64,000 bases of DNA. It comes from a phage. The notes beneath the pieces were generated by a model that saw nothing but the letters and a program-made list of their open reading frames with translations, made no database searches and was not told where the DNA came from. The translations under genes were made by a program, and so were the position numbers. The stretch lies in sequence record NC_101835.1, one strand, 5' to 3'. Below, piece after piece: positions 9,116 to 46,582 of the stretch (its first letter is position 1; each line of letters opens with the position of its first letter).

Positions 9116-9234
9116 AGCACCGAGCCCACACAGGTTCCTCATGCTAAAGCATGGCCTGAAGAGGCAAACGTGCATAATTCCTGCGCATTTGGACGTATAA
9201 TCCTGTTCACACTCTCATTTCCAGAGGAGATTTT

Positions 9235-9450
9235 ATGAAGATAGAGATATTTGGTGGAGCTGACAACACTCGTGGCCTGATTTACCTTGAATTCGATGAA
9301 TCATACCTGCCAGAGGTGTTAAATATAGACTCTGTTGCTGAGGCTTTGGGAGTAAACCCTAAAGAACTCCACTCTTGTGCTGAGATCGATGGTTGGGAAG
9401 AGACCATGAACATTGATTTCAGTGAAGTAGAGGATGAACCGCTGGACTGA
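9235..9450 (+). CDS. small acidic protein
   Basis: GAGGAG RBS; MKIEIFGG.. acidic; last rightward gene before the non-coding zone. Confidence 0.5.
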   Translation: MKIEIFGGADNTRGLIYLEFDESYLPEVLNIDSVAEALGVNPKELHSCAEIDGWEETMNIDFSEVEDEPLD

Positions 9451-9800
9451 CACACAATTAGCTGCCCGGCTAAAGTGCTGGAAGCACCTATAACACATCT
9501 TTCAACTAAATTTCCTACCACCACAATCACTTACCTCCCACACATGACTGTTTGCTTGTTTAGTGAGCAGTCATGCCTTGACATTCTTGCCTATCCTGAT
9601 AAAATTAAGTTCTTCTCTTTTCTTTTACCGAGTAATTCGGGTTTTCTGTTCTCTTCGGTTTGAAGGGGTATGGAGATACACCTGAGTGAACAGGGTGAAC
9701 AACCGAACCTTTGGCTATGGCATTAGCATGGCGAAGCGGACGGGTGACGAAAGAGGGGCCGGAGGACACCAGTCACTGCCATATGATATATGGGTGATAA

Positions 9801-10342
9801 CCTGAAGAGTCTGAATAAGTGTTTAAGTACCAGTCAGAGGAAAAGGTGAATGGTAGCCGAAGGGGGGAGGGGGGTTTCTTGTATCTTTAATTTGTATATT
9901 ATGTATACACTTGTAAACCAATCTAATCTGAATCTGTTTACCACACAAAGCGGATAGAGACAAATATTGCCTATTAAACTTGAATTATTTATAGAAAATA
10001 CCACAACACTACTTAAGTCTTTGATTTTACACACAAATCCTGCAGATATTCACCCTCCATATTTAACATACTTGTAACATATTCCATACTCTACCTGCCC
10101 GATCAATTCACCCAACTACATCCCCATATTTTCCCTGTCTGTACTACCCCTGCCCCGCCGGGAGTCCCATCATATCTGGCTTTCCAGCAAATATCACACC
10201 CACAAATATCATTGCCTGAAGAGGGTTTCATCCCATAATACCTGCCTTACCTGAAGAGCGCTTCATACACCACGTAAATTTTTTAATTGACCTCCCCCTG
10301 CCCCGCCGGAGAGGTTGGCTTTTCCCACACAGACCTGAAGAG
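9801..10342. repeat. dispersed direct repeats (CCTGAAGAG x4; CCCCTGCCCCGCCGG x2)
   Basis: CCTGAAGAG at 9801, 10215, 10250, 10334; CCCCTGCCCCGCCGG at 10148 and about 10295; GACCTACAGG x2 near 10390-10450. Confidence 0.5.
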
Positions 10343-10918
10343 TCAGCCAGAAATATCTGAATAGGCCCAATTCTACCACGATTTTGACCTGACCTACAGG
10401 GAGGCCCGAAGGGTCTAGCTTTCAGCTAGAGTCCTTGCAGGACCTACAGGAGCGCTGCCAGGCGGACGGAATGGGAATACTTCTCATTCTTATAACAATT
10501 CTCAAATATCGAGGCAGTGAGAGAAATTAATAGGCCAGGCCGTTCACACAGTGGCACAACATTTGCAACCTATTTTGTGTGGATGAATGAGAATACCTAT
10601 CATTATGAGAATAGTTATCATTACTGGCAATTTAACATAATACCCATTATGCGCACCACTGGCGATCCATACAGGGATTGATAACATGAGTTACTGTTTA
10701 CGCATATAACAATTATATTTATTACTATTTGTGTTGGGTATAGTTAGCAGCCGATAGATTAGATATTGACCTGCAGACTTCCAACTGTCTAGACGTCTAA
10801 ACGCCCACACAGCAAGGATTATACATACACAACTGAATGTAAACAGGGCCGCAAAAATGCTACCATACCAGATTGTAAATTTTTCATGCAGCACTTGACA
10901 AAGAGGAGGAAAACTTGT

Positions 10919-10960
10919 CTGACATACTGTGACATAATATGACATAATAGTGACACACTG
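10919..10960. repeat. tandem 10-11 bp iterons (TGACATA-type)
   Basis: tgacatactg / tgacataata / tgacataatag / tgacacactg in direct tandem. Confidence 0.5.
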
Positions 10961-11052
10961 GGCATACTCAACACTGGATACAATAACAATTGTTACTATT
11001 GCATGCCTCACTGTTCACGCATAGATGATAAGCCATGCCATTCGTTTGCATG

Positions 11053-11312
11053 ACAATAATTAACTTGTTTACAATCTTTCACTGGCTATGCCAGGTGACC
11101 TTTGGTCACCCCTTCGGGTGTTTCTATGACATAATATAAAAGCAGGGCAACTATTAGAAGATCTATAGTTGCCTTGCTTGTTATGTCATGATTAACTAAA
11201 TACAAGGCAACTATGATCTGATTAATAGATTGCAGACAAACTATCACGGGGGTGATGGTTACTGCTTTTATATTATGTCGCGACTCCGTCGCGCCATGCC
11301 ATTCGTTTGCAT
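11053..11312. repeat. inverted-repeat element bracketed by 19-bp direct repeats
   Basis: CCATGCCATTCGTTTGCAT at 11053-11071 and 11294-11312; inverted arms 11127-11146 and 11262-11279; palindrome 11147-11174; GGCAACTAT 9-mer x4 in alternating orientation. Confidence 0.5.
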
Positions 11313-11972
11313 AGTTGCCTTATTGTTACAGGTAAAATAATTACATTATTAATTATTTCTTATCTTTCTCTTAGTCATCTAATGATTCCAGTCAGTATAG
11401 TAATGTACAGTAAACATTAGACGACTAAATATTTCTCTGTTTATGATAACTCACCGTGACAATTTCGGACTGTTTACGAAAAATGTTGACACCTAAGCTG
11501 ATTTATGTTATGCAGTTTACACGAATAATTATTTTATGCAGGTATTGACTATTCCGTTATTCTGTGGTTGGAATAAATACTTTGCAGGCTATAGAATGGC
11601 GTGCGTACATGAATTCTGAGATCTGGCGGCTATAGTTATACTCGATTTTTCACGTAGAACACGCTTTTTAGTTTGTGTAAGTGTATGACTTATAAGAATT
11701 TTTACTTGTTGACAAGATATTGAAGATCTGCATCAGGTTAAAATTTGTGCAATAGCTGCATTACGTGCAATTTTGGAAGGGAAAACGGGTAAAAATAGCC
11801 CTGCTACCACACAATGAAAAGTTATGCAATAGTTATTTTACATGTATATTTGTACAGTGTGTGGGGTTGATGGCTCGTCAATTATTCCACTTGCCAGGTA
11901 GGGCCGTTTATGGTAGGAGAAGAGCAGACAAAAAGAAAGGGGCCTAAGCCCCTTGATAATTCAGTTAAAAAA

Positions 11973-31575: not shown

Positions 31576-31929
31576 TTAGTGACAATCACCCCAATTACGA
31601 CCACACAAGTATTCACCTGTGATCTGGAACGGGACTCCCATCATTTTAGAAGCTTGCCAGAAGCAATGTACCACCATTTCGCCCACAGGACTCCAGATAA
31701 GTTCAAGCTTTCCGTCATCGTTCAAGATAGGATCGTACACCGTGTTTCCGTTTCTGTCAACCACTTCGTTTCCGTTTTCATCCTTGCGTGCCTTTTTGTA
31801 CTTATGACCGTCGAACACATGAAGTTTGGCCTCCTGCTCTGCCTTAAATGCTTCCAATTCTTCAATTGTGTCGAAGGTGTACACAGTCTTATACTTAGGT
31901 GTGTCAGGGACCTGAAGTTGGTACTCATC
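31576..31929 (-). CDS. DNA polymerase (family A), C-terminal segment / putative exon 2
   Basis: Begins DEYQLQV (completes HDE motif C with the upstream exon) and ends ..CGRNWGDCH, like the C-terminal His of T7 gp5 / Pol I; no SD before it. Confidence 0.6.
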   Translation of the reverse strand, partial: DEYQLQVPDTPKYKTVYTFDTIEELEAFKAEQEAKLHVFDGHKYKKARKDENGNEVVDRNGNTVYDPILNDDGKLELIWSPVGEMVVHCFWQASKMMGVPFQITGEYLCGRNWGDCH

Positions 31930-32205
31930 CAATAGTTCAGGTAGGTCGTTAAGCTACCCCGCACCATTACGTGCATAGCCATACGTTTTCACGTAGGATC
32001 GGACCATCTCATATTCCTATGATAAGCAACCACAGGAATCCTCCCATTTCGACCGCACTTGCTGGTCTACTTCCTTTCGGAATGGCCTCTGAGCGTTCGC
32101 TCTTTTGAGCGCTTCGTTGCGGATTACCTTGCCATAAGGTTTAGGCTTCCCGCAGTTAAAGAGGTTATTCGACATAGATTACTCTATGAAGCCACAATGT
32201 TATTT
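31930..32205 (-). other. putative group I self-splicing intron in DNA polymerase gene
   Basis: 276 nt between ..YYH and DE..; 5-prime exon ends in U, intron ends in G; GUGG near intron start can pair with exon CCAU; P-like AACUGCGGGAAGCC and Q-like AAUCCGCAACG; GAAA-capped hairpins. Confidence 0.5.
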
Positions 32206-34629
32206 ATGGTAATAAATAATACGACGAACACCTTCATCGTACCACCCACGCTTCACCATTTGGTGGTGCATAAGTATCCCAACCAAGTCACACAGCGATG
32301 CACCACCATTCTGTTGATATGCATTAAGTAAAGAGTGTTTAGATCGGGTCCAGATGGCATGACCATCAAAAGAGTAGATAAACTTCTTACCCGTTGCTTC
32401 CCAGAATTTCTCCAGATCCTCTTTACGGCCCTTAAGACCAGGGTTGGCATCCCAAAGCGCATCGATTACCCTTTGTCCCAACTCTGGAGAGATGTCCAGC
32501 ATATCTGCAACTTTATCTTTTTGTGCCCCGTACATAACCCCATACGTGATAGGTTTACCGTCGTTACGGGACACCTCTCTACCTGCTACTTTTGTATATG
32601 CCTCAGCATTGTTTTGGTGTGCGTCCCCGTTACTTACAACATCGTAATACAGGCCGTTGTCGAACTCAAAGGCACCCCAAGCCCCGATAAGCTGCTCTAA
32701 GTTGGACCCGTCAATACCGATCTCAAAGTATCCCGGAGGAACACCCCACAGACTACGCATCTCTTTACCCATAACCACTTTAGGAGATGGTTTAGGCATG
32801 TTTGCACAAATACTGTGTTTCTGTCTGGAAGTGTTTGTTAATCCAGAGCTTTTAGCAGGAAGCTTATGGTCAATCTTCAAACGTGGGTGATTAAGAAGAC
32901 CAGTGTCAACCTTATCCTCCTTGATTGGATCAAGTACCGATCTGCGGTTTCGCAATGATAACCATAAGACGATATCTTTAGCCATCTCTCCGTTCAATTT
33001 TTCAAGATTCGGACACAGGTGTCCAAACGTATCTTTCAGTTGCGGAGAAGTAATAAGTGCCCTAGCTTTTCTACGTATTTTCCCGAATACTTCCTTTTTA
33101 ATCCTTTCGGAGTTAGGAAAGCTTCGGAACTTGTGCACTGTTGTCTGAAACTTAGCATCAGTTTTGTTCCAGAAGTTGATAATTAGGTCACAATACTCTG
33201 ACTCTAAAAGCTCGTCCATGTATGCATATACTCGTGCATCAACATCTGCATCAGGTAGAGCTTTCTTCTTGCTGTCTTTAGTTACATCCTTAGTTCTCCA
33301 CATTGTCGGAAGCCAACCAGCACTGATCAGGTATCGCTTAATGTCGTCCTGATTGCTGATTTTCATAGGTATCTTGCAGTCAGGCATTCGCTTCTGCTGC
33401 AGATCGCTTATTGCCTGATCCATCAGCTCTTTAGGCAAAGGTTGTGGTGTGGAGGTGCCCTTAATATAACCTCTCAAGAAATCAGCCATCTTGTCGGGGT
33501 CTTTGCAGCCCATCTCTTCACACCATTTTATCCCCATCTTACTGACATCTCCTGTGGAGGTAAATGCTCTCTTAGGCGGGGCTTTGAACTCTAGAGCGCT
33601 CATGTCTACAGGATAGCCAAGCTTATCTTTTAACCATTTCCAACCATTATTAGAGATTGTCCCGTCTTGGTTAAACGGCTTTTCAGGGAACTTGGGCCGC
33701 TGAGACATTGACAGCTCTTTTAAAGGCAGTTGTGGTTCAACACGATCAGCGATTTCTTTCATCCACGCATCGCAACGGTCACGTAAAGCAATAGCTCCAT
33801 CTATGTCGAAGTATACACCCTGACGGGCCTGCAGCTCCATCAGGAAGTGCTGCAGCATGCCTCGACGTAATGCGTTCTTCCAGGTGATCTTCTTGAACCC
33901 TTTCGGCTTCTCTTTGGCAGGATCGTACATAAAGTTCTGCATGTCAGATTTGCCGTAGAATACACCTTTTGATTCCGCTACCAGTTCTTTCCAGAGCAGC
34001 TCCTGGATGATAACGTCCTCAAATACACGATCCACATACTTCCACAACGGAAGATCGCGCCAGTCATCAATTTGAACTTTCTGGTTACCAAGGGCATAGC
34101 CCCATGCCATAAGGCCGTGGGGACCAACAGGCTGCATTTTCTTAGTAACCGGGTTGAATACAGCGTCCGGACAACCTTTTGGTAAAGGGCGATCAGGCCA
34201 CAAGATTCGGCTCATCGCCAACGTATCAAACAGGTTAACCTGGTGGTCGTTGATAGTCCCCATGCATTTAGGATCACGGAACATATCAAAATGAATACCG
34301 GATAATCTTTCCATCAGCATAAAGTCATAACTGTAGCAGTTATGGCAGTTCAAAGCTGTTGGTGACCAGTCGGAATTGCCTGTAAGCCAACCTTCCAACT
34401 CCGAAAAATCTGCTATGCGAACTTCAAAACCTTTATAAAGAGTTTTCTTTGCCAGAATGAAGTTCTTAGCCTTTTCTATATCCTCCTCGGAGTAGTGTGT
34501 GCGGTCATTTAGAGGAAGGAACAGCATAAAACGGTTCTTATTCAGCTCTTTAAACAGGCCGCAGTGATAATAAAGATCTGGATCTTCCAAAAGCCCTGAG
34601 GCCTCCAGATCGAAGCACCAATTACTCAT
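32200..34629 (-). CDS. DNA polymerase (family A, T7 gp5-like), N-terminal 808 aa / putative exon 1
   Basis: N-terminal FDLEASGL..HCG exonuclease motif like T7 gp5; motif A region IGIDGSNLEQL; motif B KPITYGVMYGAQ; ORF stops at ..RIIYYHK, i.e. at motif C. Confidence 0.85.
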   Translation of the reverse strand: MSNWCFDLEASGLLEDPDLYYHCGLFKELNKNRFMLFLPLNDRTHYSEEDIEKAKNFILAKKTLYKGFEVRIADFSELEGWLTGNSDWSPTALNCHNCYSYDFMLMERLSGIHFDMFRDPKCMGTINDHQVNLFDTLAMSRILWPDRPLPKGCPDAVFNPVTKKMQPVGPHGLMAWGYALGNQKVQIDDWRDLPLWKYVDRVFEDVIIQELLWKELVAESKGVFYGKSDMQNFMYDPAKEKPKGFKKITWKNALRRGMLQHFLMELQARQGVYFDIDGAIALRDRCDAWMKEIADRVEPQLPLKELSMSQRPKFPEKPFNQDGTISNNGWKWLKDKLGYPVDMSALEFKAPPKRAFTSTGDVSKMGIKWCEEMGCKDPDKMADFLRGYIKGTSTPQPLPKELMDQAISDLQQKRMPDCKIPMKISNQDDIKRYLISAGWLPTMWRTKDVTKDSKKKALPDADVDARVYAYMDELLESEYCDLIINFWNKTDAKFQTTVHKFRSFPNSERIKKEVFGKIRRKARALITSPQLKDTFGHLCPNLEKLNGEMAKDIVLWLSLRNRRSVLDPIKEDKVDTGLLNHPRLKIDHKLPAKSSGLTNTSRQKHSICANMPKPSPKVVMGKEMRSLWGVPPGYFEIGIDGSNLEQLIGAWGAFEFDNGLYYDVVSNGDAHQNNAEAYTKVAGREVSRNDGKPITYGVMYGAQKDKVADMLDISPELGQRVIDALWDANPGLKGRKEDLEKFWEATGKKFIYSFDGHAIWTRSKHSLLNAYQQNGGASLCDLVGILMHHQMVKRGWYDEGVRRIIYYHK

Positions 34630-35360
34630 ACTGTCTCCTCCTGTGTCTTCTCAGCATTCTTTCTTGCAGCTATTGCATCGTCCCTGTTCTTGAAATACCC
34701 AAGGCATTTCCTTTTACCATCTACATAAATTCTGGCTACCCATCTTTCATGGGTTTTATCCCAATTCACCCCTGAGCAACCGCTGGTGTTATTATACTGC
34801 ACGGCTCTTCCACTCTTGTGCGAAAAACCATTATCTTCGAAGAACTTTCTTGCCCACTCTGCCTCTTCAAAAGTTCTGTACTGGCCTAGCCAGACCCTTT
34901 CACCTACAGAGTCTGTGCCTTGAGCTACCCATGCCCCTCTTTCTTCAGAATAGTGCACCCCGACCCTGCCAGATTTGTTGTTGCTACGAGGTATCTTGCA
35001 ACTTTTCTTTTTGTTATCTGTAGGTTCGAGTAGTTGCAAATTTTGAATACTGTTGTCAGCCACACCACCTGTTTCCCTTATCTCCTTGATGTGGTCAACC
35101 TCATACCCTTCCGGTACAGGACCGTTAAACATTTCCCAGATTATAACGTGGGCACCTTTAGTGCAATGCTTTCCTAGACTAACCACAGGCCTGCCATCAG
35201 CATCTTGCCCCTTGTCAGCTCTGGAGCCTGCTGAAGTTTTAACATATCCTACACCGCTGCCTGCCAGAATGTCTATCTTCCAAAAAAGATTTTGACCGTC
35301 ATACTCCAATATTTCTGACCACAAGTGATTAGCTACACAGTGATCTCTGAACTCGTTCAT
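34626..35360 (-). CDS. HNH homing endonuclease with two AP2 domains
   Basis: HNH core GYEVDHIKEIRETGGVADNSIQNLQLL..N; AP2-like repeats SGRVGVHYSEERGAWVAQ and SGCSGVNWDKTHERWVARIYVDGKRKCLGYF; stop overlaps polymerase start. Confidence 0.75.
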   Translation of the reverse strand: MNEFRDHCVANHLWSEILEYDGQNLFWKIDILAGSGVGYVKTSAGSRADKGQDADGRPVVSLGKHCTKGAHVIIWEMFNGPVPEGYEVDHIKEIRETGGVADNSIQNLQLLEPTDNKKKSCKIPRSNNKSGRVGVHYSEERGAWVAQGTDSVGERVWLGQYRTFEEAEWARKFFEDNGFSHKSGRAVQYNNTSGCSGVNWDKTHERWVARIYVDGKRKCLGYFKNRDDAIAARKNAEKTQEETV

Positions 35361-35418
35361 AAAGTGTTCTCCTTAAAGGGGAGGCGGTTGTACTACCCCT
35401 CCCACTCTTTGTTAAACA

Positions 35419-37497
35419 TTAAAAAGGCGTTTCATCATCCTCAAAACCAGGGACCGGGTCAGAGGATGGATCATCGTACTGGAGGTCTTCCTGCGTGTCA
35501 ACAGGCTTAACAGTAGGAGTTACAACCTTATCAGCCACAACCTTGCCCATAGGTGTTTCTACAACTGCATGCTCCTGATCCTCAAACATAGCCTGAGGTC
35601 TCCAAACAACCTCCCCACCTTCTCCGTCTGTAAACATTTGCATTTCTTTGTCCCAGTACCAATTACTGGCATCATGGAACTTACCTGTATGTGGGTCCAT
35701 AACTAAAGTGTCAGCAATACCTAAAGTTTTTGCTGGACGGTTTTTAAGACCTACCAGACGGACACGCCCACGAGAACGATCCACCATTTCTTCGGCCTCG
35801 ACACCTATGACTACCCAACTCAACTGTTCAAGCCCAGCCGATCCTCGCAAATTCTCTTTTCGCACAGGATACCAGAAAGGTAATGGGTTACCATCCTTGT
35901 CCTTAGGGGGCACAATCTCTGTACGTTTGAGGTGAGCGATCACCAAGATAAACACGTTAAACTGCTTACAAAACGCAGCCAGCTGAGTCATAGCCATGTC
36001 CAGTTCTTTTCGCTCATCTTTAACATTAAGCCCTGAAATTACCATAGACAGGTGATCCAGCACAATATAGCGACAATGGTACAGGCAGACCATTTGCTTA
36101 AGCTTGGTAATCAACTCGTCCACTGGAATAGACCCGAAATGTTTGAACACTTTGATTTTTCCAGCTTTTGCCCATGATTGGTGAATCTCTGCATGTTCTT
36201 GATCAGTTAAAAACTGGCTAGGATCTTCAACAAACTCTTTAACATCAAACCCTAACTGGTTTGCATACAAGGAGTTAATTGCTTCCTCTGGGTCCTCCTC
36301 AAGATGAATCATGCATAGACGATCATCCTCTTCGTAGTCATCGGCCTTTGGACATGTCGGGTCCATTAGGTATCTTGCAATACAGTGTTCCAGTTTTTTG
36401 GCTACAGTTGTTTTACCACCTCCTGATGGACCTGTAAGCATTACGAGTGTCCCTTTGTGCAAGCCTTTTAGCATTTTTTGCAGTTTTGGAAACTCTGCGC
36501 TGATATCTACCCCGTTGGAAGTCTTTTTCCGCAAAGATTCGATAGAGAAGTCTTCTAAATCCGACACAGCATCAGGCACATACTTAACAGGATGCCGGAA
36601 CATGTTTACAATATCTTCCAGCTTTTTAGCCTTCAGCATGTCACGGATATCTTTTACACCATCAGGGTCGTTTACCTCGCCAGGATATTCCACGTGGTAA
36701 ACGTTGTCAGCCATCAAAAATGCTGCAATATTATGTGTGGCTTCAACACCTTTGATAACGTGTTTTTGCTTCTCTACCTCGTTAGCCGCATCGTTGTCCA
36801 TTGCAAGGACCACTGTTCCGTAGCTACGGATAAATTTCTCATTGTTTGCAAAAGTATCTACTGCGTTTGCACATCCACAGTTAATTCCAACAAAAGGTAG
36901 GCAGGGTTTTCCTGCCAGATCACCCCCGTTGATAACTGCATCGATCCCGTCCTGGACCTCTTTAGCCCACTGTTTCACCTTTGCCGGGGCTTTAGCGTTG
37001 GTGAGAATCCCTTTTACTTGTATCTGATATGCAGCCTGCCATGCTGCAATAACATCACCTTCCCCCTCACAAACGTTAATCTGCTTACGGTTGTTAGAAG
37101 ATGCACACAGCTTTTGCCCAAACATTTGGGAGTTAGCCTTTACGATCCCAACCGTCGTAAAGTGCCCACGTTGCTCTTTGGGGATCGTCCAGTCACGCTT
37201 TTTGAAACCGGACAGATTCCCGTAGCGGTCGTAATATGGGAAATATGTTGCAGTAACTGTCACACCGTCTTCTTGGGACAATGCTGATCGCACACCAAAA
37301 TATTGTGCAGCCATCAGACCGATATTTTGTTGTGGGACAGGGACGATTTTAGTATTTTCTAAAACAGTCTCTACAGTTTCAACTTCTTTTTCATCACGAT
37401 AGTCTCGTTTCACACTTCCCCCACTTTTATACTTAGTTGCTTTCGGGTTTGGCTCACCGAAACGGTTGTATGCAGATGCCATAAATTTACTTCCCAT
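35419..37497 (-). CDS. bifunctional DNA primase-helicase (T7 gp4-like)
   Basis: TOPRIM residues CEGEGD and VLAMDNDAANE; Walker A LTGPSGGGKTT; Walker B YIVLDHL; acidic C-terminal tail ..FEDDETPF. Confidence 0.85.
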   Translation of the reverse strand: MGSKFMASAYNRFGEPNPKATKYKSGGSVKRDYRDEKEVETVETVLENTKIVPVPQQNIGLMAAQYFGVRSALSQEDGVTVTATYFPYYDRYGNLSGFKKRDWTIPKEQRGHFTTVGIVKANSQMFGQKLCASSNNRKQINVCEGEGDVIAAWQAAYQIQVKGILTNAKAPAKVKQWAKEVQDGIDAVINGGDLAGKPCLPFVGINCGCANAVDTFANNEKFIRSYGTVVLAMDNDAANEVEKQKHVIKGVEATHNIAAFLMADNVYHVEYPGEVNDPDGVKDIRDMLKAKKLEDIVNMFRHPVKYVPDAVSDLEDFSIESLRKKTSNGVDISAEFPKLQKMLKGLHKGTLVMLTGPSGGGKTTVAKKLEHCIARYLMDPTCPKADDYEEDDRLCMIHLEEDPEEAINSLYANQLGFDVKEFVEDPSQFLTDQEHAEIHQSWAKAGKIKVFKHFGSIPVDELITKLKQMVCLYHCRYIVLDHLSMVISGLNVKDERKELDMAMTQLAAFCKQFNVFILVIAHLKRTEIVPPKDKDGNPLPFWYPVRKENLRGSAGLEQLSWVVIGVEAEEMVDRSRGRVRLVGLKNRPAKTLGIADTLVMDPHTGKFHDASNWYWDKEMQMFTDGEGGEVVWRPQAMFEDQEHAVVETPMGKVVADKVVTPTVKPVDTQEDLQYDDPSSDPVPGFEDDETPF

Positions 37498-39193: not shown

Positions 39194-39495
39194 CAGAAAC
39201 CTCCCACTTCTTCAGCAAATGCAGCTGCTGTCGTCGCTGCATCCAGATAGGACTCTAGTTCACGGGCTGCACGTTTGTAAATTGAGTGGCGCATATCGTT
39301 TGGCAGTTGGTGGAAGTCCACCTCTTCACCGTTGTGGTAAACACGCACATCGGTAATTTGTCTAAATCCGTAATAGTCAACATCAGAGTCACGGCACTCC
39401 GAGTCTGGCAGCTGGACAACTGCTTGAGCTTCCACAGTAAACATATCGTCAAGTTCGAAATCGATTTCAAAAGTGTATGGTTTATAACGTTTCAT
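39193..39495 (-). CDS. hypothetical protein
   Basis: AAGGAAG RBS. Confidence 0.5.
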   Translation of the reverse strand: MKRYKPYTFEIDFELDDMFTVEAQAVVQLPDSECRDSDVDYYGFRQITDVRVYHNGEEVDFHQLPNDMRHSIYKRAARELESYLDAATTAAAFAEEVGGF

Positions 39496-39555
39496 CGTTT
39501 AGTGCTTCCTTAGTTTTTGTGGGGAGGAGTGCCTCCCCTTTAGACTAACATCTTA

Positions 39556-39897
39556 CTACTGAAGGTCTTCAGAGTCAAGCTCAAAAAGAATCAAACTGTG
39601 CATGCCTGCAGAGAGATCAACGCACCCTGCAATAATAAGGGTCTGATAGTAAGGTTCAGCACCATCAATGTCTTCGTTAAAATCTACAACAAGATAGTCA
39701 CCTTTGTTAAAGGTGTATTTGTCCGATGTAAACGCAAAACCTACCCAGTCCCCTACTGCAGGATCTTTATCAGTCACCTTTGTTAGCAGTAGATCTTTTT
39801 CACGAGATCTTTTAGTAAAATCGTGAATCACAACATCCTTCTCTTCAGGAGTTGGATTGCCGCACACGTAGTTAACTATATTTCTCCACAAACTCAT
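39556..39897 (-). CDS. hypothetical protein
   Basis: AGAGGGGGA RBS; coupled to helicase gene. Confidence 0.5.
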   Translation of the reverse strand: MSLWRNIVNYVCGNPTPEEKDVVIHDFTKRSREKDLLLTKVTDKDPAVGDWVGFAFTSDKYTFNKGDYLVVDFNEDIDGAEPYYQTLIIAGCVDLSAGMHSLILFELDSEDLQ

Positions 39898-41264
39898 ACG
39901 TCCCCCTCTTCGGCTCTGGTTTCAAAATCTTTCCTGACAATTTTGTCTAAGTCAGGGAATGTTGTATTGTAAAACTCTACGACTCGCGGGTCAACAATAA
40001 TGTCAACTTCTCTTAGTGGACGCAACAAGTTTATTCCTTGTATTGTCTTAACTCGACTCAAAGCAACATACGTCATCCCCGGAGAGAAAGCTCCGTTCTT
40101 TCCAAGGTCTAGGTTGTAACAATCTAGCGTAAGTCCTTGACTTTTATGAGATGTTACGGCGTACCCAGATTTCAGAGGAAGTTGCTTGTATGACCCAATC
40201 ACTACCCTCTCTATAAACTTCTCCATCTTCCTTTCTGCAATATTGTATCTCTGAGAGGGCTTATACTCGTTATTCTCCCACAACCTCTGCTCTATGTCAA
40301 CCTGTGTTCCATCTTCAAGCTCTACCACCACCGCCTTGTTCTTAAATTTAACAATTGTGGCACGTGTTCCGTTAACATAATAAGGTACTTTGTGCGTCGG
40401 GTCAACATCGTTGGCGGTTATCATAACTTTCATGCCAATTTTCAACTTCATCTCCTGCTCAACTGGCAGGGTGGAGGGAAACTTACCCTTCATTTCACCA
40501 GTGTATACCTTCTCTGGGGCGTTGATGGCATCATAGAACCTTCTGTTTACTTCCTCTGCTTGTTTGTTGGTGGCGCAAATTGTGAGAGCATCTGTTGGTA
40601 CACCACCTTTGTAACAGCGAGCATTAAGTTCTGCTACAACCTCTTTTATGCGACGACCCTCACGAACACAGTTGAGCATTGTGGCAAATCGAATAGACTC
40701 CTGTCGGAACTGATCTATTAGGGCTATGTTGTGGAGGTCAAGCTCTTTCCAAGATTCGGTATAGCAACACAGGTCCGTATGGTAGAAGTTGAAGTAGGCT
40801 TCCTTCTCCATAGAAGAGACAACAGGAGGTGCCTGGTAAAAATCGCCAAACAATATGACCTGTATGCCCCCGAAAGGTTTGTCATTTTTTCGAAGGAAGC
40901 GGAGTTTCCTATCCATCTCTATAAACTTATCAGCACGAATCATAGAGATTTCATCGATAATTAGGATGGTAAATGCCTTGCTTTTCAAAGGCTTTGCTGT
41001 TTTTGCCCTTATTGCGGTCCAGTCCGACTCCATGCTCACACCTGCTGCAAGATCGAAGGTTCGGTGTGCTGTTGCTCCATTAACGTTTAAAGCGGCTACC
41101 CCTGTCGGGGCAACCGTTATGCAAGAGTCTCCATACATTGACTGGATCATGTTGATGAGGTACGTCTTCCCACAACCTGCGGGTCCTGAAACGAAGACAT
41201 TCTCACCGCTCATGATTGCAACGAGGGCAGCATCTGTGCCTACATCATACTGCCCTTTTTCCAT
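39894..41264 (-). CDS. SF1B DNA helicase (Dda/Pif1/RecD-like)
   Basis: Walker A SGPAGCGKTY; Walker B LIIDEISM; C-terminal YAVTSHKSQGLTLD motif. Confidence 0.8.
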   Translation of the reverse strand: MEKGQYDVGTDAALVAIMSGENVFVSGPAGCGKTYLINMIQSMYGDSCITVAPTGVAALNVNGATAHRTFDLAAGVSMESDWTAIRAKTAKPLKSKAFTILIIDEISMIRADKFIEMDRKLRFLRKNDKPFGGIQVILFGDFYQAPPVVSSMEKEAYFNFYHTDLCCYTESWKELDLHNIALIDQFRQESIRFATMLNCVREGRRIKEVVAELNARCYKGGVPTDALTICATNKQAEEVNRRFYDAINAPEKVYTGEMKGKFPSTLPVEQEMKLKIGMKVMITANDVDPTHKVPYYVNGTRATIVKFKNKAVVVELEDGTQVDIEQRLWENNEYKPSQRYNIAERKMEKFIERVVIGSYKQLPLKSGYAVTSHKSQGLTLDCYNLDLGKNGAFSPGMTYVALSRVKTIQGINLLRPLREVDIIVDPRVVEFYNTTFPDLDKIVRKDFETRAEEGDV

Positions 41265-42469
41265 TACGCCTCCTCGTAAAGAATGTCGATAGTATTACCG
41301 TCACGATCAACTACATATTCAATAGGGTCTCCATCTTTGCGTGCTTCCGGAGCTACCACAATCTCATAGCGGCATGCACGGCACTTAGCGCTATTGTGTT
41401 GGTATGGCACACTAACCACATCTGCAGGATCAACCATAACAGTCATTACAGTGCCGTAGCTCTTTGCATACTCTTTGCTGGCGCAGTGTAAGCCATAGGA
41501 GCACGCAGCTTCCGGATCATCCTCTACAAAGTTACGAGGCATGGATACAAAAGCACCCTGGTATTGTGGAACTTTACCACTGTGCCAATCCACCCACTTG
41601 CTGCCGTTAAACTGAACCCCTTTGTAGCAAATGATTCGACCATCTTCTGCAATCTGGATATCGTTGGCCTGCATAAAATCGTAGAGCATGTTTACAGATT
41701 TTGCAGAAGGATTGCGTAGCAGGCGAACGAGGAATTTCACATAGCGGTCATCCAGCGTTCCGTCTGCATAATCTTTCTCAATTTTCTTTGCAATGGTGGA
41801 TCGCATCTCTACACCGTAGTAGTAGAGCTTACCATCTTTCATGATCAGGTTGTCTGCAAGTGTGGTGAACTCATTCTTGCGTTCCAGCCAGACAAGGATT
41901 TCACCAATTGCCTCATCATATTCCTGAACAGAGATATGGTCGAAGACTTTCTGGTAAACTTCCTCACTTTCGCTGCGGCGAATTTCAAAAATGCCTTCGT
42001 TGCAGGTGATCTGGAGGAGTTCACCACAAATAACTACCAAAGGCTCGATGCTTCGAGTCTGTTGCTGAGACACACTGCTCACCACCTCCAGCACCGGGTC
42101 TTTGACTTCTACTAAAGGTTCTTCTGACTTGATTGCCACCCCAGTGAACCCCACACCGTGAACAACACACAGTGGGTATACCACGCCCCAACGTTTAACG
42201 GAACCTTCGCCTAAGTCTAAGATCATGGCGTACTTACCATTATCTTCCAGCCCATATCGAAATAGACGGGCCTCTTCACGGGTTTCAAAATCCTCACGGG
42301 TGTAGCAGACGCTGTCACGGTCAGGATCGAACAATTCTGGGGCACCCACTGCCAGTGTCCAGGTTGTGTCACCTTTCTCAATGGCACATGTGAAACCCTT
42401 CTTCTCAAGTTCTGCACGGCGGTCGCGTGCTTCTTTACGAGTTTTGAAATGTTCGTAGATGAAAATCAT
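41264..42469 (-). CDS. rIIB: rIIB-like protein
   Basis: C-terminal AACSYGLHCASK..VMVDPADVVSVP..KCRACRYE resembles T4 rIIB (TCSYGLHVCSK..VHPRDVVSIP..KMRTCQYE); directly downstream of rIIA-like gene. Confidence 0.7.
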   Translation of the reverse strand: MIFIYEHFKTRKEARDRRAELEKKGFTCAIEKGDTTWTLAVGAPELFDPDRDSVCYTREDFETREEARLFRYGLEDNGKYAMILDLGEGSVKRWGVVYPLCVVHGVGFTGVAIKSEEPLVEVKDPVLEVVSSVSQQQTRSIEPLVVICGELLQITCNEGIFEIRRSESEEVYQKVFDHISVQEYDEAIGEILVWLERKNEFTTLADNLIMKDGKLYYYGVEMRSTIAKKIEKDYADGTLDDRYVKFLVRLLRNPSAKSVNMLYDFMQANDIQIAEDGRIICYKGVQFNGSKWVDWHSGKVPQYQGAFVSMPRNFVEDDPEAACSYGLHCASKEYAKSYGTVMTVMVDPADVVSVPYQHNSAKCRACRYEIVVAPEARKDGDPIEYVVDRDGNTIDILYEEA

Positions 42470-42479
42470 CTTGGTCTCC

Positions 42480-44462
42480 TTATTTGATGTTATTCTTTGT
42501 ATCGATCAGTTCACGGTATTCAATCATAGCAGGAGTGTCCCAATATTTCAAGCCTACATGCTTCAAAAGTGGGTATTTCTTTTCCAATCTTGCAATATAG
42601 GCCTTCCCGCATTTAACTCGGTTGGCGATTAAGATTTTGGCACGATGATTTAGCTCACTGTGCTTCCACGTGGTGTTACCTTCCCACTTGTGGAAATGTG
42701 GCCGATAATTTCCAAAATCTTGCATGGGAATAATTTTCCCTAATTGTCTATACAGGCTGTCATAAGAAGTCTCATTTGCTGCACGGGTCAGTAAGAATTT
42801 CCAAGCATCCTCTTTCAACAGGTGCTCCACATTCTTCTCTGTAACATACTGGCAATCAGGATCAGTCCAAAGCAGACGAGATTCAGATACCAGATACAGA
42901 TCTTCACCTTCAGGAATCTGAAGTGCCGCACGTACACGGTCATAATCTTGCTGGTAGATGTTACTCATCTGCCCCAGCCAACAACTTCCACGTTGGATAT
43001 CACCCTCATAAGGGATGCAGTGTTTAATCTTCCGGAACTCTGCCTTAGTAATACGCTCACGGCGGAAGTAACCATCCTTCTCAAGTTTTTTAACCCAATA
43101 GCCTGGCTCATAACGAGTTTTTGTTTCACCTTTCTTGGCAGGTCGGCGAGGGAGCTCCGATAACAATTTGACCGTATCTGCAAAGAACGGGTGGTGTGCC
43201 GCTTCTTTAAACTCTTCCACCAGATCCGTGGTACGGCAATAGAAAACGTTGCGTCCGGTGATCTCGCTTAAGTAGTTACACTTATTTCGGTTATATTTGC
43301 CGTCTCCGTCGTTAAATACTAAATAGACTCCCCGTAAGAACTCTGACTTTCCATAACGAGCATAGCCTATGCGGCCTTTATTTAAGCCGCCAGCGAAAAT
43401 TTCACAATCGCCTAAGTCTCCAAGTCCTGTTTCTTCCCAACGGTTCCACATAAAGTTTTTGCCGAAGATGTGTCCGAACACCCCACTATTCTTCATCATT
43501 TCACGTGCTTCTGAGGATGTTTTTGCTGTTTCCAATTCCGCAACAACTTCTGCCCCACGAAGACGGATACCTTCTTTGACAAAGGCCTCCAGGCGATCCT
43601 GGAATCCACCGTCGTCATGGCCCTCTATGGTCCATTCACGCCCAGGGTTAATATTGCAATCCCCAATAGGAATTTCCACGCAGATTGCAGGGTAATCGGT
43701 CAATGTCTCCAGGAACTTGGAGCGGTAAGGTTGGTGACCCATCACAACACGGCTCTCATCAGAACTGGTATAACCTTTCAGGATGGTCATTTTCCAGCCA
43801 TCCTTCTCGTAATGATACTGTGCCTCAACCTTGTCACCTTCTAACATCTTACTGGTCATAGGATCGGTGACGATGAACGGAAACTTCGCATAGCGTAAGC
43901 ACGATGCAATAGCAGTGCGATATTTCAGGACATGCTCTTTCTTAACATGGAACTGAACTTTTACCCCGTTGTGCTCTTCAGTCTTCCGCTCACGGATCTT
44001 GGTAACGTTTGGGATACCCTGATCCAAGAACAATAGATATGTGCTTTCAACACCATTGTGCACACTGATAACATCGAAAGTGTCCACCATACTGAACGGA
44101 GCCTTTGAACCAACACCTTTATTACCTACCAGAGCGTTGCTGTTGCGCTTGGTTGACTCCCCGAGATTCATGAAAGTGTTGCGGACCATCTCTTCTGACA
44201 TGCCCAATCCAACGTCCTGCACAAAGAAGTATGGTTCAAGGTCTGTAGGGGAGTGAATGATGATCGGTACATCACCCCGTCCAGACTCAACATGGGAGTC
44301 CACAGCATTGAAGATTGGTTCACGGCAGCTTGCCAGCACCTTATCTTCGTAAATCCCTTTAATGATTAGCCCAAAAGTCTCTTTGTTCAGAGAAATTGAG
44401 CCCCTGGTGACCTCCATATTTCCGGTTAGTACTGCTTTAGTTTCATTACTGTTTACAATCAT
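42480..44462 (-). CDS. rIIA: rIIA-like protein (GHKL ATPase fold)
   Basis: N-terminal FNAVDSH, FFVQDVGLGMSEE and GNKGVGSKAPFSMVDTF match the T4 rIIA N-terminal ATPase-like motifs. Confidence 0.75.
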   Translation of the reverse strand: MIVNSNETKAVLTGNMEVTRGSISLNKETFGLIIKGIYEDKVLASCREPIFNAVDSHVESGRGDVPIIIHSPTDLEPYFFVQDVGLGMSEEMVRNTFMNLGESTKRNSNALVGNKGVGSKAPFSMVDTFDVISVHNGVESTYLLFLDQGIPNVTKIRERKTEEHNGVKVQFHVKKEHVLKYRTAIASCLRYAKFPFIVTDPMTSKMLEGDKVEAQYHYEKDGWKMTILKGYTSSDESRVVMGHQPYRSKFLETLTDYPAICVEIPIGDCNINPGREWTIEGHDDGGFQDRLEAFVKEGIRLRGAEVVAELETAKTSSEAREMMKNSGVFGHIFGKNFMWNRWEETGLGDLGDCEIFAGGLNKGRIGYARYGKSEFLRGVYLVFNDGDGKYNRNKCNYLSEITGRNVFYCRTTDLVEEFKEAAHHPFFADTVKLLSELPRRPAKKGETKTRYEPGYWVKKLEKDGYFRRERITKAEFRKIKHCIPYEGDIQRGSCWLGQMSNIYQQDYDRVRAALQIPEGEDLYLVSESRLLWTDPDCQYVTEKNVEHLLKEDAWKFLLTRAANETSYDSLYRQLGKIIPMQDFGNYRPHFHKWEGNTTWKHSELNHRAKILIANRVKCGKAYIARLEKKYPLLKHVGLKYWDTPAMIEYRELIDTKNNIK

Positions 44463-44959
44463 TTATTGCGCTCCTTGTAGTAGATATGACTCCCGAATTG
44501 AGCTGTCCTCTGCATCTTTTTTGCCCATTTCGGTCGTACTTTGGTTGTATGGTAGTGTGTTGCTCCACCTGTTATATCCATAGCCATGTATGCAACATGG
44601 TTGTTATTATAGACCTTTAGAAGCATCTTTGCAAGACTTTTAGCGTGATCCCATGAATCTTTTTCTGTCACCTTAAAAGTTTTGCCGTGGTTTGTCCACG
44701 AAAACTGGTTGGGTTGGTAGACAATCTTTCTTATAGTGTCTGGGTATTTAGGGTGAGATTTCCTGTTTAATGTGGCAAACCCAGATGCCAGCATACCCAT
44801 CGTGCCATCCCCTCTAGCTTCCCTGTAGATATTACATGCCAAAATGTTTTCCTTAGTATCTGAGGGCTTGCAAGTATGATATACTTTTTGTTTTGGTGCT
44901 GCAACAACAGGCAGCGATAAAAATGCGCTCAAAATAATAGCAAAGATCTTAATTTTCAC
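44459..44959 (-). CDS. secreted cell-wall hydrolase (SleB/Hydrolase_2-like)
   Basis: GTG start after GGAG; signal peptide MKIKIFAIILSAFLSLPVVAA; NIYREARGDGTMG..LNR..YPDTIRKIVYQPNQFSW. Confidence 0.6.
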   Translation of the reverse strand: MKIKIFAIILSAFLSLPVVAAPKQKVYHTCKPSDTKENILACNIYREARGDGTMGMLASGFATLNRKSHPKYPDTIRKIVYQPNQFSWTNHGKTFKVTEKDSWDHAKSLAKMLLKVYNNNHVAYMAMDITGGATHYHTTKVRPKWAKKMQRTAQFGSHIYYKERNK

Positions 44960-45007
44960 AATAACTCCAAATAGAAAATCCCCGCCGAAGCGGGGTGGTA
45001 TTAGAAA

Positions 45008-45397: not shown

Positions 45398-46582
45398 TTA
45401 AGCTTTAGCCAAAATGGCGCTAAACTCTTCACCAAACTCTTTTACAATCTTCATCAGGTTTGGGTATGCTTTGATCAGCTGAGCAACAATCTTGTCACGA
45501 CCTTTACCGATAAGCAAGGCATTTCCTAAGGCATTAGGTTTCATCATCGCCATAAAGACTGAGAATACAAAATCTCGGTTCTCGTCCTTGAAGTTTTCCC
45601 AAAGGAAATCGAGGAAGTTTGCCACACAGCTAACAAGATCTTCGTCGGAGATACTTGCATTTTCCATCATATTACGAATAGCGATACAACCTTCAGATCC
45701 AAGAATCCACAAGATGTCTGGCTGTTTAGGGCCTACGTATTCTTTGCAACCTCCTGCCATAATCCGACCTATTTCCGGTAAGTTGCGTTTCTTGGTGTGG
45801 TAAGTCCAGATCTCTACCGCTGCAGTGTGACCAATAGCACCTTGTAGAAGAACACGGGCCATAGCGTCAGAAATAATACCGCTGTCAAAATCGTGCAAGA
45901 TATCAGATGCAGCAACCCAAGATCGCGGTGTGGCAAAAGATGGACAATTAATCTCAGCCATGGCCTCATAATTATCAATAGCTGATGGAACTCTTTTCAG
46001 ATATCCAATTACAGAGGAGTGCACCCCATTAAGGAATGCGTAGTCCTCAATAAACACCTCTGCGTTGCTTGTAACTTCTACAATGATAAAGCGGTTAGCC
46101 AGAGGGGCTTCGAGCGCCGAAAGAACAGCACCATCTGTAGAACGGTTACCTGCAGCTACAAAAACAGAGCCCTTAGGGAATGCATAGGTGCCACACTTGT
46201 GGTCGAGCATAATCTGCATTGCAACCTTTTGCAGGTAGTTATCTGCATGAGTGAGCTCATCCAGAAAGACAATTCCGCTCCAGTCAGGATCCGCAGGCCA
46301 AAATTCTGGGATTGCAAACACTGTACGTGTAGTCCCATCCGCTTCTACAGGGATAGGTAGCCCAGATAAGTCGGCAGGATCTTTATCTGACAGCCGCACG
46401 TCAACCAGGTTGTCATCTCTCTCACCGAACATATTATCAGCGATCTGCTTCATCACCTGACTCTTTCCCACACCCATTGGTCCTAAAATCAGGACAGATC
46501 GGTTATGACGCTGGGCAAACTGAATGATAGCTGGCAACTCACGGACAGTGATTTGACCACTTTCAAATACGTTTCTTGACAT
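45398..46582 (-). CDS. AAA+ ATPase (MoxR/CobS-like, AAA_5-type)
   Basis: Walker A LILGPMGVGKSQV; Walker B IVFLDELTHA. Confidence 0.7.
   Translation of the reverse strand: MSRNVFESGQITVRELPAIIQFAQRHNRSVLILGPMGVGKSQVMKQIADNMFGERDDNLVDVRLSDKDPADLSGLPIPVEADGTTRTVFAIPEFWPADPDWSGIVFLDELTHADNYLQKVAMQIMLDHKCGTYAFPKGSVFVAAGNRSTDGAVLSALEAPLANRFIIVEVTSNAEVFIEDYAFLNGVHSSVIGYLKRVPSAIDNYEAMAEINCPSFATPRSWVAASDILHDFDSGIISDAMARVLLQGAIGHTAAVEIWTYHTKKRNLPEIGRIMAGGCKEYVGPKQPDILWILGSEGCIAIRNMMENASISDEDLVSCVANFLDFLWENFKDENRDFVFSVFMAMMKPNALGNALLIGKGRDKIVAQLIKAYPNLMKIVKEFGEEFSAILAKA

Follow-up and report, generated by a model that had tools for sequence, protein, structure and literature searches.

In phage T4, rIIA and rIIB are required only on hosts expressing the RexAB proteins of phage lambda, and knock-down of RIIA or RIIB in five phages (T4, MM02, EdH4, SUSP1 and N4) was found to reduce plating only on RexAB-expressing Escherichia coli (PMC11879866). 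The same pair of genes frames the record of phage rV5 (2006), which begins at rIIA (ORF1) and ends with rIIB (ORF238). Here we describe the rIIA/rIIB pair found in a 64,000-nucleotide stretch of phage DNA from sequence record NC_101835.1, referred to below as the window, where the interval 41264-44462 consists of exactly two adjoining minus-strand open reading frames (ORFs) (Table 1). Our analysis identifies these as orthodox Vequintavirus rIIA and rIIB genes and makes it likely, by analogy with the phages in which the genes have been studied, that their jointly made products form a counter-defence complex directed against RexAB-type abortive infection.

By nucleotide comparison, the window is DNA of a Vequintavirus, an rV5-like myovirus infecting E. 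coli. It aligned to Vequintavirus genomes of 131-140 kb with 95-98% identity, and many Escherichia phages in this genus matched the 6.7 kb around the rII locus at 97-98% identity. The locus itself matched 120 records at 90-98% nucleotide identity, and most of the annotated ones label the genes rIIA and rIIB. The window RIIB has 100% protein identity to rV5 ORF238, which is annotated as "rIIB protector", and the same two genes are present in rV5 and about 120 other Vequintavirus genomes (for example bas56_0064 and bas56_0065 of AlexBoehm). Their surroundings are also shared with rV5 and the genus, namely the genes for the MoxR ATPase and the SleB-like protein on one side of the pair and those for the helicase, primase-helicase and polymerase on the other, and the rV5 record lists ORF230 as "replicative helicase/primase" and ORF228 as "similar to T7 DNA polymerase". 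The rIIA/rIIB pair with its replication neighbours is a rediscovery of existing annotation and was already known. The original prediction had seen in this combination a mosaic that could help place the phage taxonomically; it is instead the Vequintavirus arrangement, with the same genes already listed in 2006. An N4-like identity had been suspected because N4 also pairs rII with a family A polymerase, and was excluded by the DNA similarity to Vequintavirus. Relative to rV5, only nearby accessory content differs: the window has an additional HNH gene before the polymerase gene, and it is without a 1.3-kb rV5 insertion carrying the adenine methyltransferase ORF235, the site of which corresponds to window positions 39495-39556. 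The database searches also returned 16-17 unannotated "Campylobacter phage" records (within MG065646-MG065690, host Campylobacter jejuni) that are 95-98% identical to the rV5-like genome of the window and are probably mislabelled or contaminant assemblies.

Profile searches and alignments to the T4 proteins agreed on the homology of both genes, which is far above chance level. RIIA matched the PHROG 612 profile ("RIIA") over its full length (E 2e-124), and its residues 1-190 aligned to T4 rIIA with 28% identity (E 3e-21). The GHKL-type motifs that had been noticed in the rIIA-like protein proved to be intact. The match to Pfam HATPase_c_3 scored 34.9 bits, above the gathering score of 25 bits, and the Bergerat-fold residues of the N-box (E48, N52, D55), the G1 motif (D83, G85, G87) and the G2 motif (G113, G116, G118, K120) were invariant in 26 homologues ranging down to 18% identity. 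From these invariant residues, RIIA is predicted to be a GHL-class (GyrB/Hsp90/MutL/MORC-like) ATPase in which the ATP-binding motifs are intact; enzymes of this kind function as dimerising switches operated by ATP. The last ~340 residues of the protein had no solved relative and did not align to T4 rIIA, and in the T4 comparison as a whole the C-terminal two-thirds of RIIA could not be aligned. Searches of the RIIA and RIIB sequences against solved structures returned no significant match, and NCBIfam held no model matching either one. No convincing transmembrane segment was found in RIIA, where the top 19-residue Kyte-Doolittle score was 0.83.

RIIB matched the PHROG 609 profile ("RIIB") with an E-value of 1.3e-61, its residues 172-371 aligned to T4 rIIB with 37% identity (E 4e-39), and the named significant structural matches in BFVD were nearly all RIIB proteins. 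In its predicted structure, for which the predicted local distance difference test (pLDDT) value is 74 overall and ~90 in the C-terminal domain, two beta-alpha-beta-beta repeats occupy residues 3-42 and 53-103. The repeats bear a signature, F-x-[ST]-R-x-[ED]-A-R, that is kept in all Vequintavirinae-type homologues. The window protein is 89 aa longer than T4 RIIB and has these repeats where T4 has a helix-turn-helix-like region. The N-terminus of T4 RIIB gave a helix-turn-helix signal slightly below threshold (HTH_7, E 5.6e-5), whereas profile searches with the window RIIB returned no helix-turn-helix match and did not find the T4-type N-terminal region, which is not universal in the RIIB family. 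Within the C-terminal domain, Cys323, His328 and Cys366 (window ~41370-41503) are conserved from rV5 and the Vequintavirinae to T4 and are candidates for a metal-binding or catalytic site; Cys363 is conserved within the Vequintavirinae-type set only. As with RIIA, no convincing transmembrane segment was found, the top 19-residue Kyte-Doolittle score (1.69) falling in a weakly conserved stretch. A separate observation concerns a 498-aa protein, P0005, from a 3.3-kb ENA contig, which combines TPR repeats with a C-terminal half 99% identical to the window RIIB; it is either a genuine fusion or an assembly chimera.

The genes around the pair are tightly packed. The stop codon of the SleB-like gene overlaps the rIIA start (ATGA), rIIA and rIIB are separated by a gap of 10 nt with a GGAG ahead of rIIB, and the PIF1-family helicase gene has a start codon overlapping with the stop of rIIB (TAATG). 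The terminator-like hairpin just upstream of the SleB-like gene is the probable upstream boundary of the rII transcription unit. On the other side, a near-consensus sigma-70 promoter and a strong terminator-like hairpin were located downstream of four small ORFs and ahead of the methylase, primase-helicase and polymerase genes. The predicted promoter and terminators are pattern matches in the sequence, and they suggest that the SleB-like hydrolase, rIIA, rIIB and the PIF1 helicase share one transcription unit, with the primase and polymerase genes having a promoter of their own. The replication neighbours named in the original prediction do lie on the same strand as the rII pair, but the co-transcription of rII with the polymerase that it proposed is doubtful, as a predicted terminator and promoter lie between the two blocks.

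We propose that RIIA and RIIB would be made together from this unit and would act as one complex, with RIIA as an ATP-driven dimerising switch and RIIB as its partner. Such a complex would allow growth on hosts with RexAB-type systems, which otherwise halt infection by membrane depolarisation. The idea of a joint complex is supported by the short gap between the genes, by their order, which other phages share, and by fusions of the two proteins: phage RB43 has a natural RIIA-RIIB fusion of 1049 aa, and the single PHROG 609 profile was matched by RIIA at positions 29-186 and by RIIB at positions 806-1045. With regard to the anti-Rex role, phage EdH4 is classed as Vequintavirus murica, the same species as Murica, whose rIIA has 96.4% nucleotide identity to that of the window, so that this role has effectively been tested for the orthologue group to which the window genes belong. 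RIIB alone has in addition been reported to set off a CARD/gasdermin defence system (PMC10312443). Several points nevertheless weigh against a RexAB-directed complex. The anti-Rex evidence comes from related phages and not from the window phage. No transmembrane segment is predicted in RIIA or RIIB, and any membrane association would be peripheral. Moreover, just 2 or 3 of the BASEL phages were affected by RexAB, and the natural target in the hosts of rV5-like phages may therefore be another system. Finally, the RIIB N-terminus is unlike the T4 helix-turn-helix, which may make the mechanism partly different.

Explanations based on lysis timing, DNA topology and transcription factor activity each have some support, but weaker than that for counter-defence. 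The first of these holds that the pair chiefly sets the timing of lysis, acting as a "lysis inhibitor" in concert with the secreted SleB-like hydrolase encoded upstream, and is not directed against host defence. The rII name derives from the rapid-lysis plaques of T4, PHROG and many records call the RII proteins "lysis inhibitor", and the overlap with the SleB-like gene together with the hairpin just upstream of it suggests one unit. On the other hand, knock-down in the five phages, one of which is a Vequintavirus, caused no defect without RexAB (PMC11879866). Both proteins are without a signal peptide or transmembrane segment, and the CB7 relatives retain the SleB-like gene without rIIA and rIIB, so there is no obligate link between them. 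Taken together, we consider a primary role in lysis timing unlikely.

A somewhat smaller chance still is given to the possibility that the rII module of the Vequintavirinae is wired to the cell envelope and not to DNA, such that the tandem SPOR-like RIIB repeats, conserved across the subfamily and taken up in exchange for the T4-type helix-turn-helix, the translational coupling to the secreted SleB-type peptidoglycan hydrolase and the MoxR ATPase two genes away would make up an envelope-directed counter-defence island. When the N-terminal repeats of RIIB (residues 1-103, window 42161-42469) were compared with SPOR, the result was sub-threshold in three separate tests. The GenBank record of phage YP-6 calls its RIIB orthologue a "SPOR domain-containing protein". 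We regard as very improbable the view that the pair belongs to the replication or DNA-topology machinery, in which a GHL ATPase and the neighbouring helicase would operate jointly on DNA. Profile searches detected no Toprim, cleavage or recognisable DNA-binding domain in RIIA or RIIB, Hsp90, MORC and MutL scored nearly equal to topoisomerase (at 12-17% identity), and the rII genes are dispensable on Rex-free hosts. The least probable explanation is that the module controls the expression of phage genes, with RIIB as a transcription factor of the sort that Iyer et al. 2021 (PMC7824862) proposed for the T4 type, since the helix-turn-helix signal of T4 RIIB that favors it has no counterpart in the window protein, the N-terminus of which is modelled as the two repeats described above, and only the C-terminal domain is common to the two. 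The evidence as it stands thus favors the counter-defence complex.

The original prediction had called the rII genes canonical for T4-like and some other phages, but they are not mainly a T4-like trait. Of 50,697 phage records searched by tblastn with RIIB, 2877 gave a match, and these span many genera, including T4-like, Felix O1-like, Vi01-like, N4-like, Streptomyces, Caulobacter and Vibrio phages, and the rIIA-then-rIIB order is kept in T4 and in N4-like and Felix O1-like phages. A position among DNA-metabolism genes is found in all three as well. In T4, the pair lies between the topoisomerase genes and denB. It has the same gene order as in the window with a gap of ~10-11 nt, the same GHKL N-terminus in RIIA and the same C-terminal RIIB domain; the replicative polymerase of T4 belongs to family B. 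The N4-like (Schitoviridae) and Felix O1-like (Ounavirinae) phages, which use family A polymerases, have adjacent rIIA and rIIB genes among genes of nucleotide and DNA metabolism, as in the window. For example, the pair adjoins thymidylate synthase and dCTP deaminase in an N4-like phage and polynucleotide kinase in a Felix O1-like phage. The RII proteins of these phages are larger than those of the window (N4-like RIIA 855 aa, RIIB 686 aa), and the similarity of both groups to the window proteins is confined to the ATPase and the RIIB C-terminal domain. Their anti-RexAB role is documented by the knock-downs in N4 and SUSP1. Outside the subfamily, the nearest relatives of RIIB are Felix O1-like and T4-like, whereas those of the polymerase are ICP1-like; the two genes therefore have separate histories, which is usual in phages. 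The window phage, a ~137-kb myovirus, is also not a member of the Autographiviridae, the family of T7 with its ~40-kb genome and T7-type organisation.

Table 1. Positions and supporting matches of the features discussed, in window coordinates.
Feature	Position	Strand	Details
Family A DNA polymerase gene	31576-34629	-	PHROG 17; exons 34629-32206 and 31929-31576
Group I intron, ORF-less	32205-31930	-	276 nt; splits polymerase gene at motif C (YYH|DE)
Free-standing HNH homing-endonuclease gene	34626-35360	-	244 aa; PHROG 99, E 6e-52; between primase-helicase and polymerase
T7 gp4-like bifunctional primase-helicase	35419-37497	-	PHROG 239, E 8e-160; Pfam DnaB_C
Strong terminator-like hairpin	38298-38273	-	11-bp stem; pattern match
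Near-consensus sigma-70 promoter	38347-38319	-	TTGACA-17-TACAAT; pattern match; rV5 annotates P231 at the equivalent place
PIF1-family SF1B helicase	39894-41264	-	Pfam PIF1, E 1e-32; PHROG 325, E 6e-112 (label "Dda-like")
rIIB	41264-42469	-	401 aa; two beta-alpha-beta-beta repeats (1-103), disordered linker (101-141), RIIB C-terminal domain (~170-372)
rIIA	42480-44462	-	660 aa; GHL-type ATPase and transducer-like module (~residues 1-290), then lineage-specific C-terminal region
SleB-like cell-wall hydrolase	44459-44959	-	Pfam Hydrolase_2, E 2e-19; N-terminal signal peptide (hydrophobic N-terminus, Kyte-Doolittle 2.29)
Terminator-like GC hairpin	44980-44995	-	CCCCGCTTCGGCGGGG, then T-rich tail; just upstream of SleB-like gene
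MoxR-type AAA ATPase	45398-46582	-	PHROG 1297, E 2e-110; two genes upstream of rIIA; annotated MoxR ATPase in rV5 and AlexBoehm

The helicase encoded next to rIIB had been described as Dda-like, and its PHROG label reads the same. Among solved structures, the "AAA ATPase" chain 8bns ranked first (E 1.5e-64), ahead of Pif1 helicases from bacteria (~E 1e-59 and weaker) and eukaryotes, and T4 Dda was not among the matches at E <= 1e-3. The protein is best classed as a predicted Pif1-family enzyme that is not specifically Dda-like. The likeness of the primase-helicase to T7 gp4 and of the polymerase to T7 gp5 held to the extent that structures of these T7 proteins were the only solved relatives, but the relation is a distant one, with E-values of 1.6e-16 for the primase-helicase and 6e-16 for residues 633-813 of the polymerase. 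The polymerases nearest to it came from other Vequintavirinae and, outside the subfamily, from Vibrio phage ICP1 (43% identity), and identity to T7-group phages was 25-31% across ~210 of the 925 residues.

The polymerase gene is split by an intron, and Rfam RF00028 (group I intron) matched at 31980-32215 with 64.7 bits. Joining of the exons gives a protein of 925 aa that is 99.8% identical to the product of the intron-less gene of phage HdK5, where it is encoded in one piece. An 809-aa ORF (32200-34629) was considered as the complete polymerase gene and rejected, because it ends inside motif C (...IIYYH-K-stop) and represents exon 1; the polymerase annotation in the rV5 record also covers exon 1 only. 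At the same site AlexBoehm has a longer intron with a homing endonuclease, whereas the window intron is without an endonuclease ORF. The window does carry a free-standing HNH gene, the stop codon of which overlaps the polymerase start. The ~776-bp stretch around it (34590-35365) did not align to rV5 or AlexBoehm, and only an 81-nt ORF is annotated at this position in rV5.

Elsewhere in the window, ~2.8 kb without a convincing ORF were observed at ~9150-11970, where plus- and minus-strand gene blocks converge. This region contains short direct repeats (three copies of ATGAGAATAnnTATCATT), a 20-nt sequence repeated exactly and a perfect inverted repeat of 18 nt; one stretch is AT-rich (GC 0.31-0.35), and another is GC-rich with a strong C skew. 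The region is probably equivalent to the non-coding region of rV5 and Murica and to the intergenic region of Bas54 that is free of insertions, and it may serve as an origin or encode a non-coding RNA.

As a discovery the locus carries little weight, but it is useful as a calibration. The presence of an rII pair beside replication genes is normal in several large phage lineages and, taken alone, gives no taxonomic signal. The most obvious features for mutation are the RIIB N-terminus, which is specific to the Vequintavirinae, and the intact GHL ATPase site. In phage Bas54, another member of the Vequintavirinae, bas54_0063 has been reported as needed against the predicted defence system DS-28 (HIDEN-SEQ preprint, 10.1101/2025.11.20.689424), and the window MoxR ATPase corresponds to this gene by annotation and synteny. 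This stretch of the window may thus be an accessory region for counter-defence and not one devoted purely to replication.

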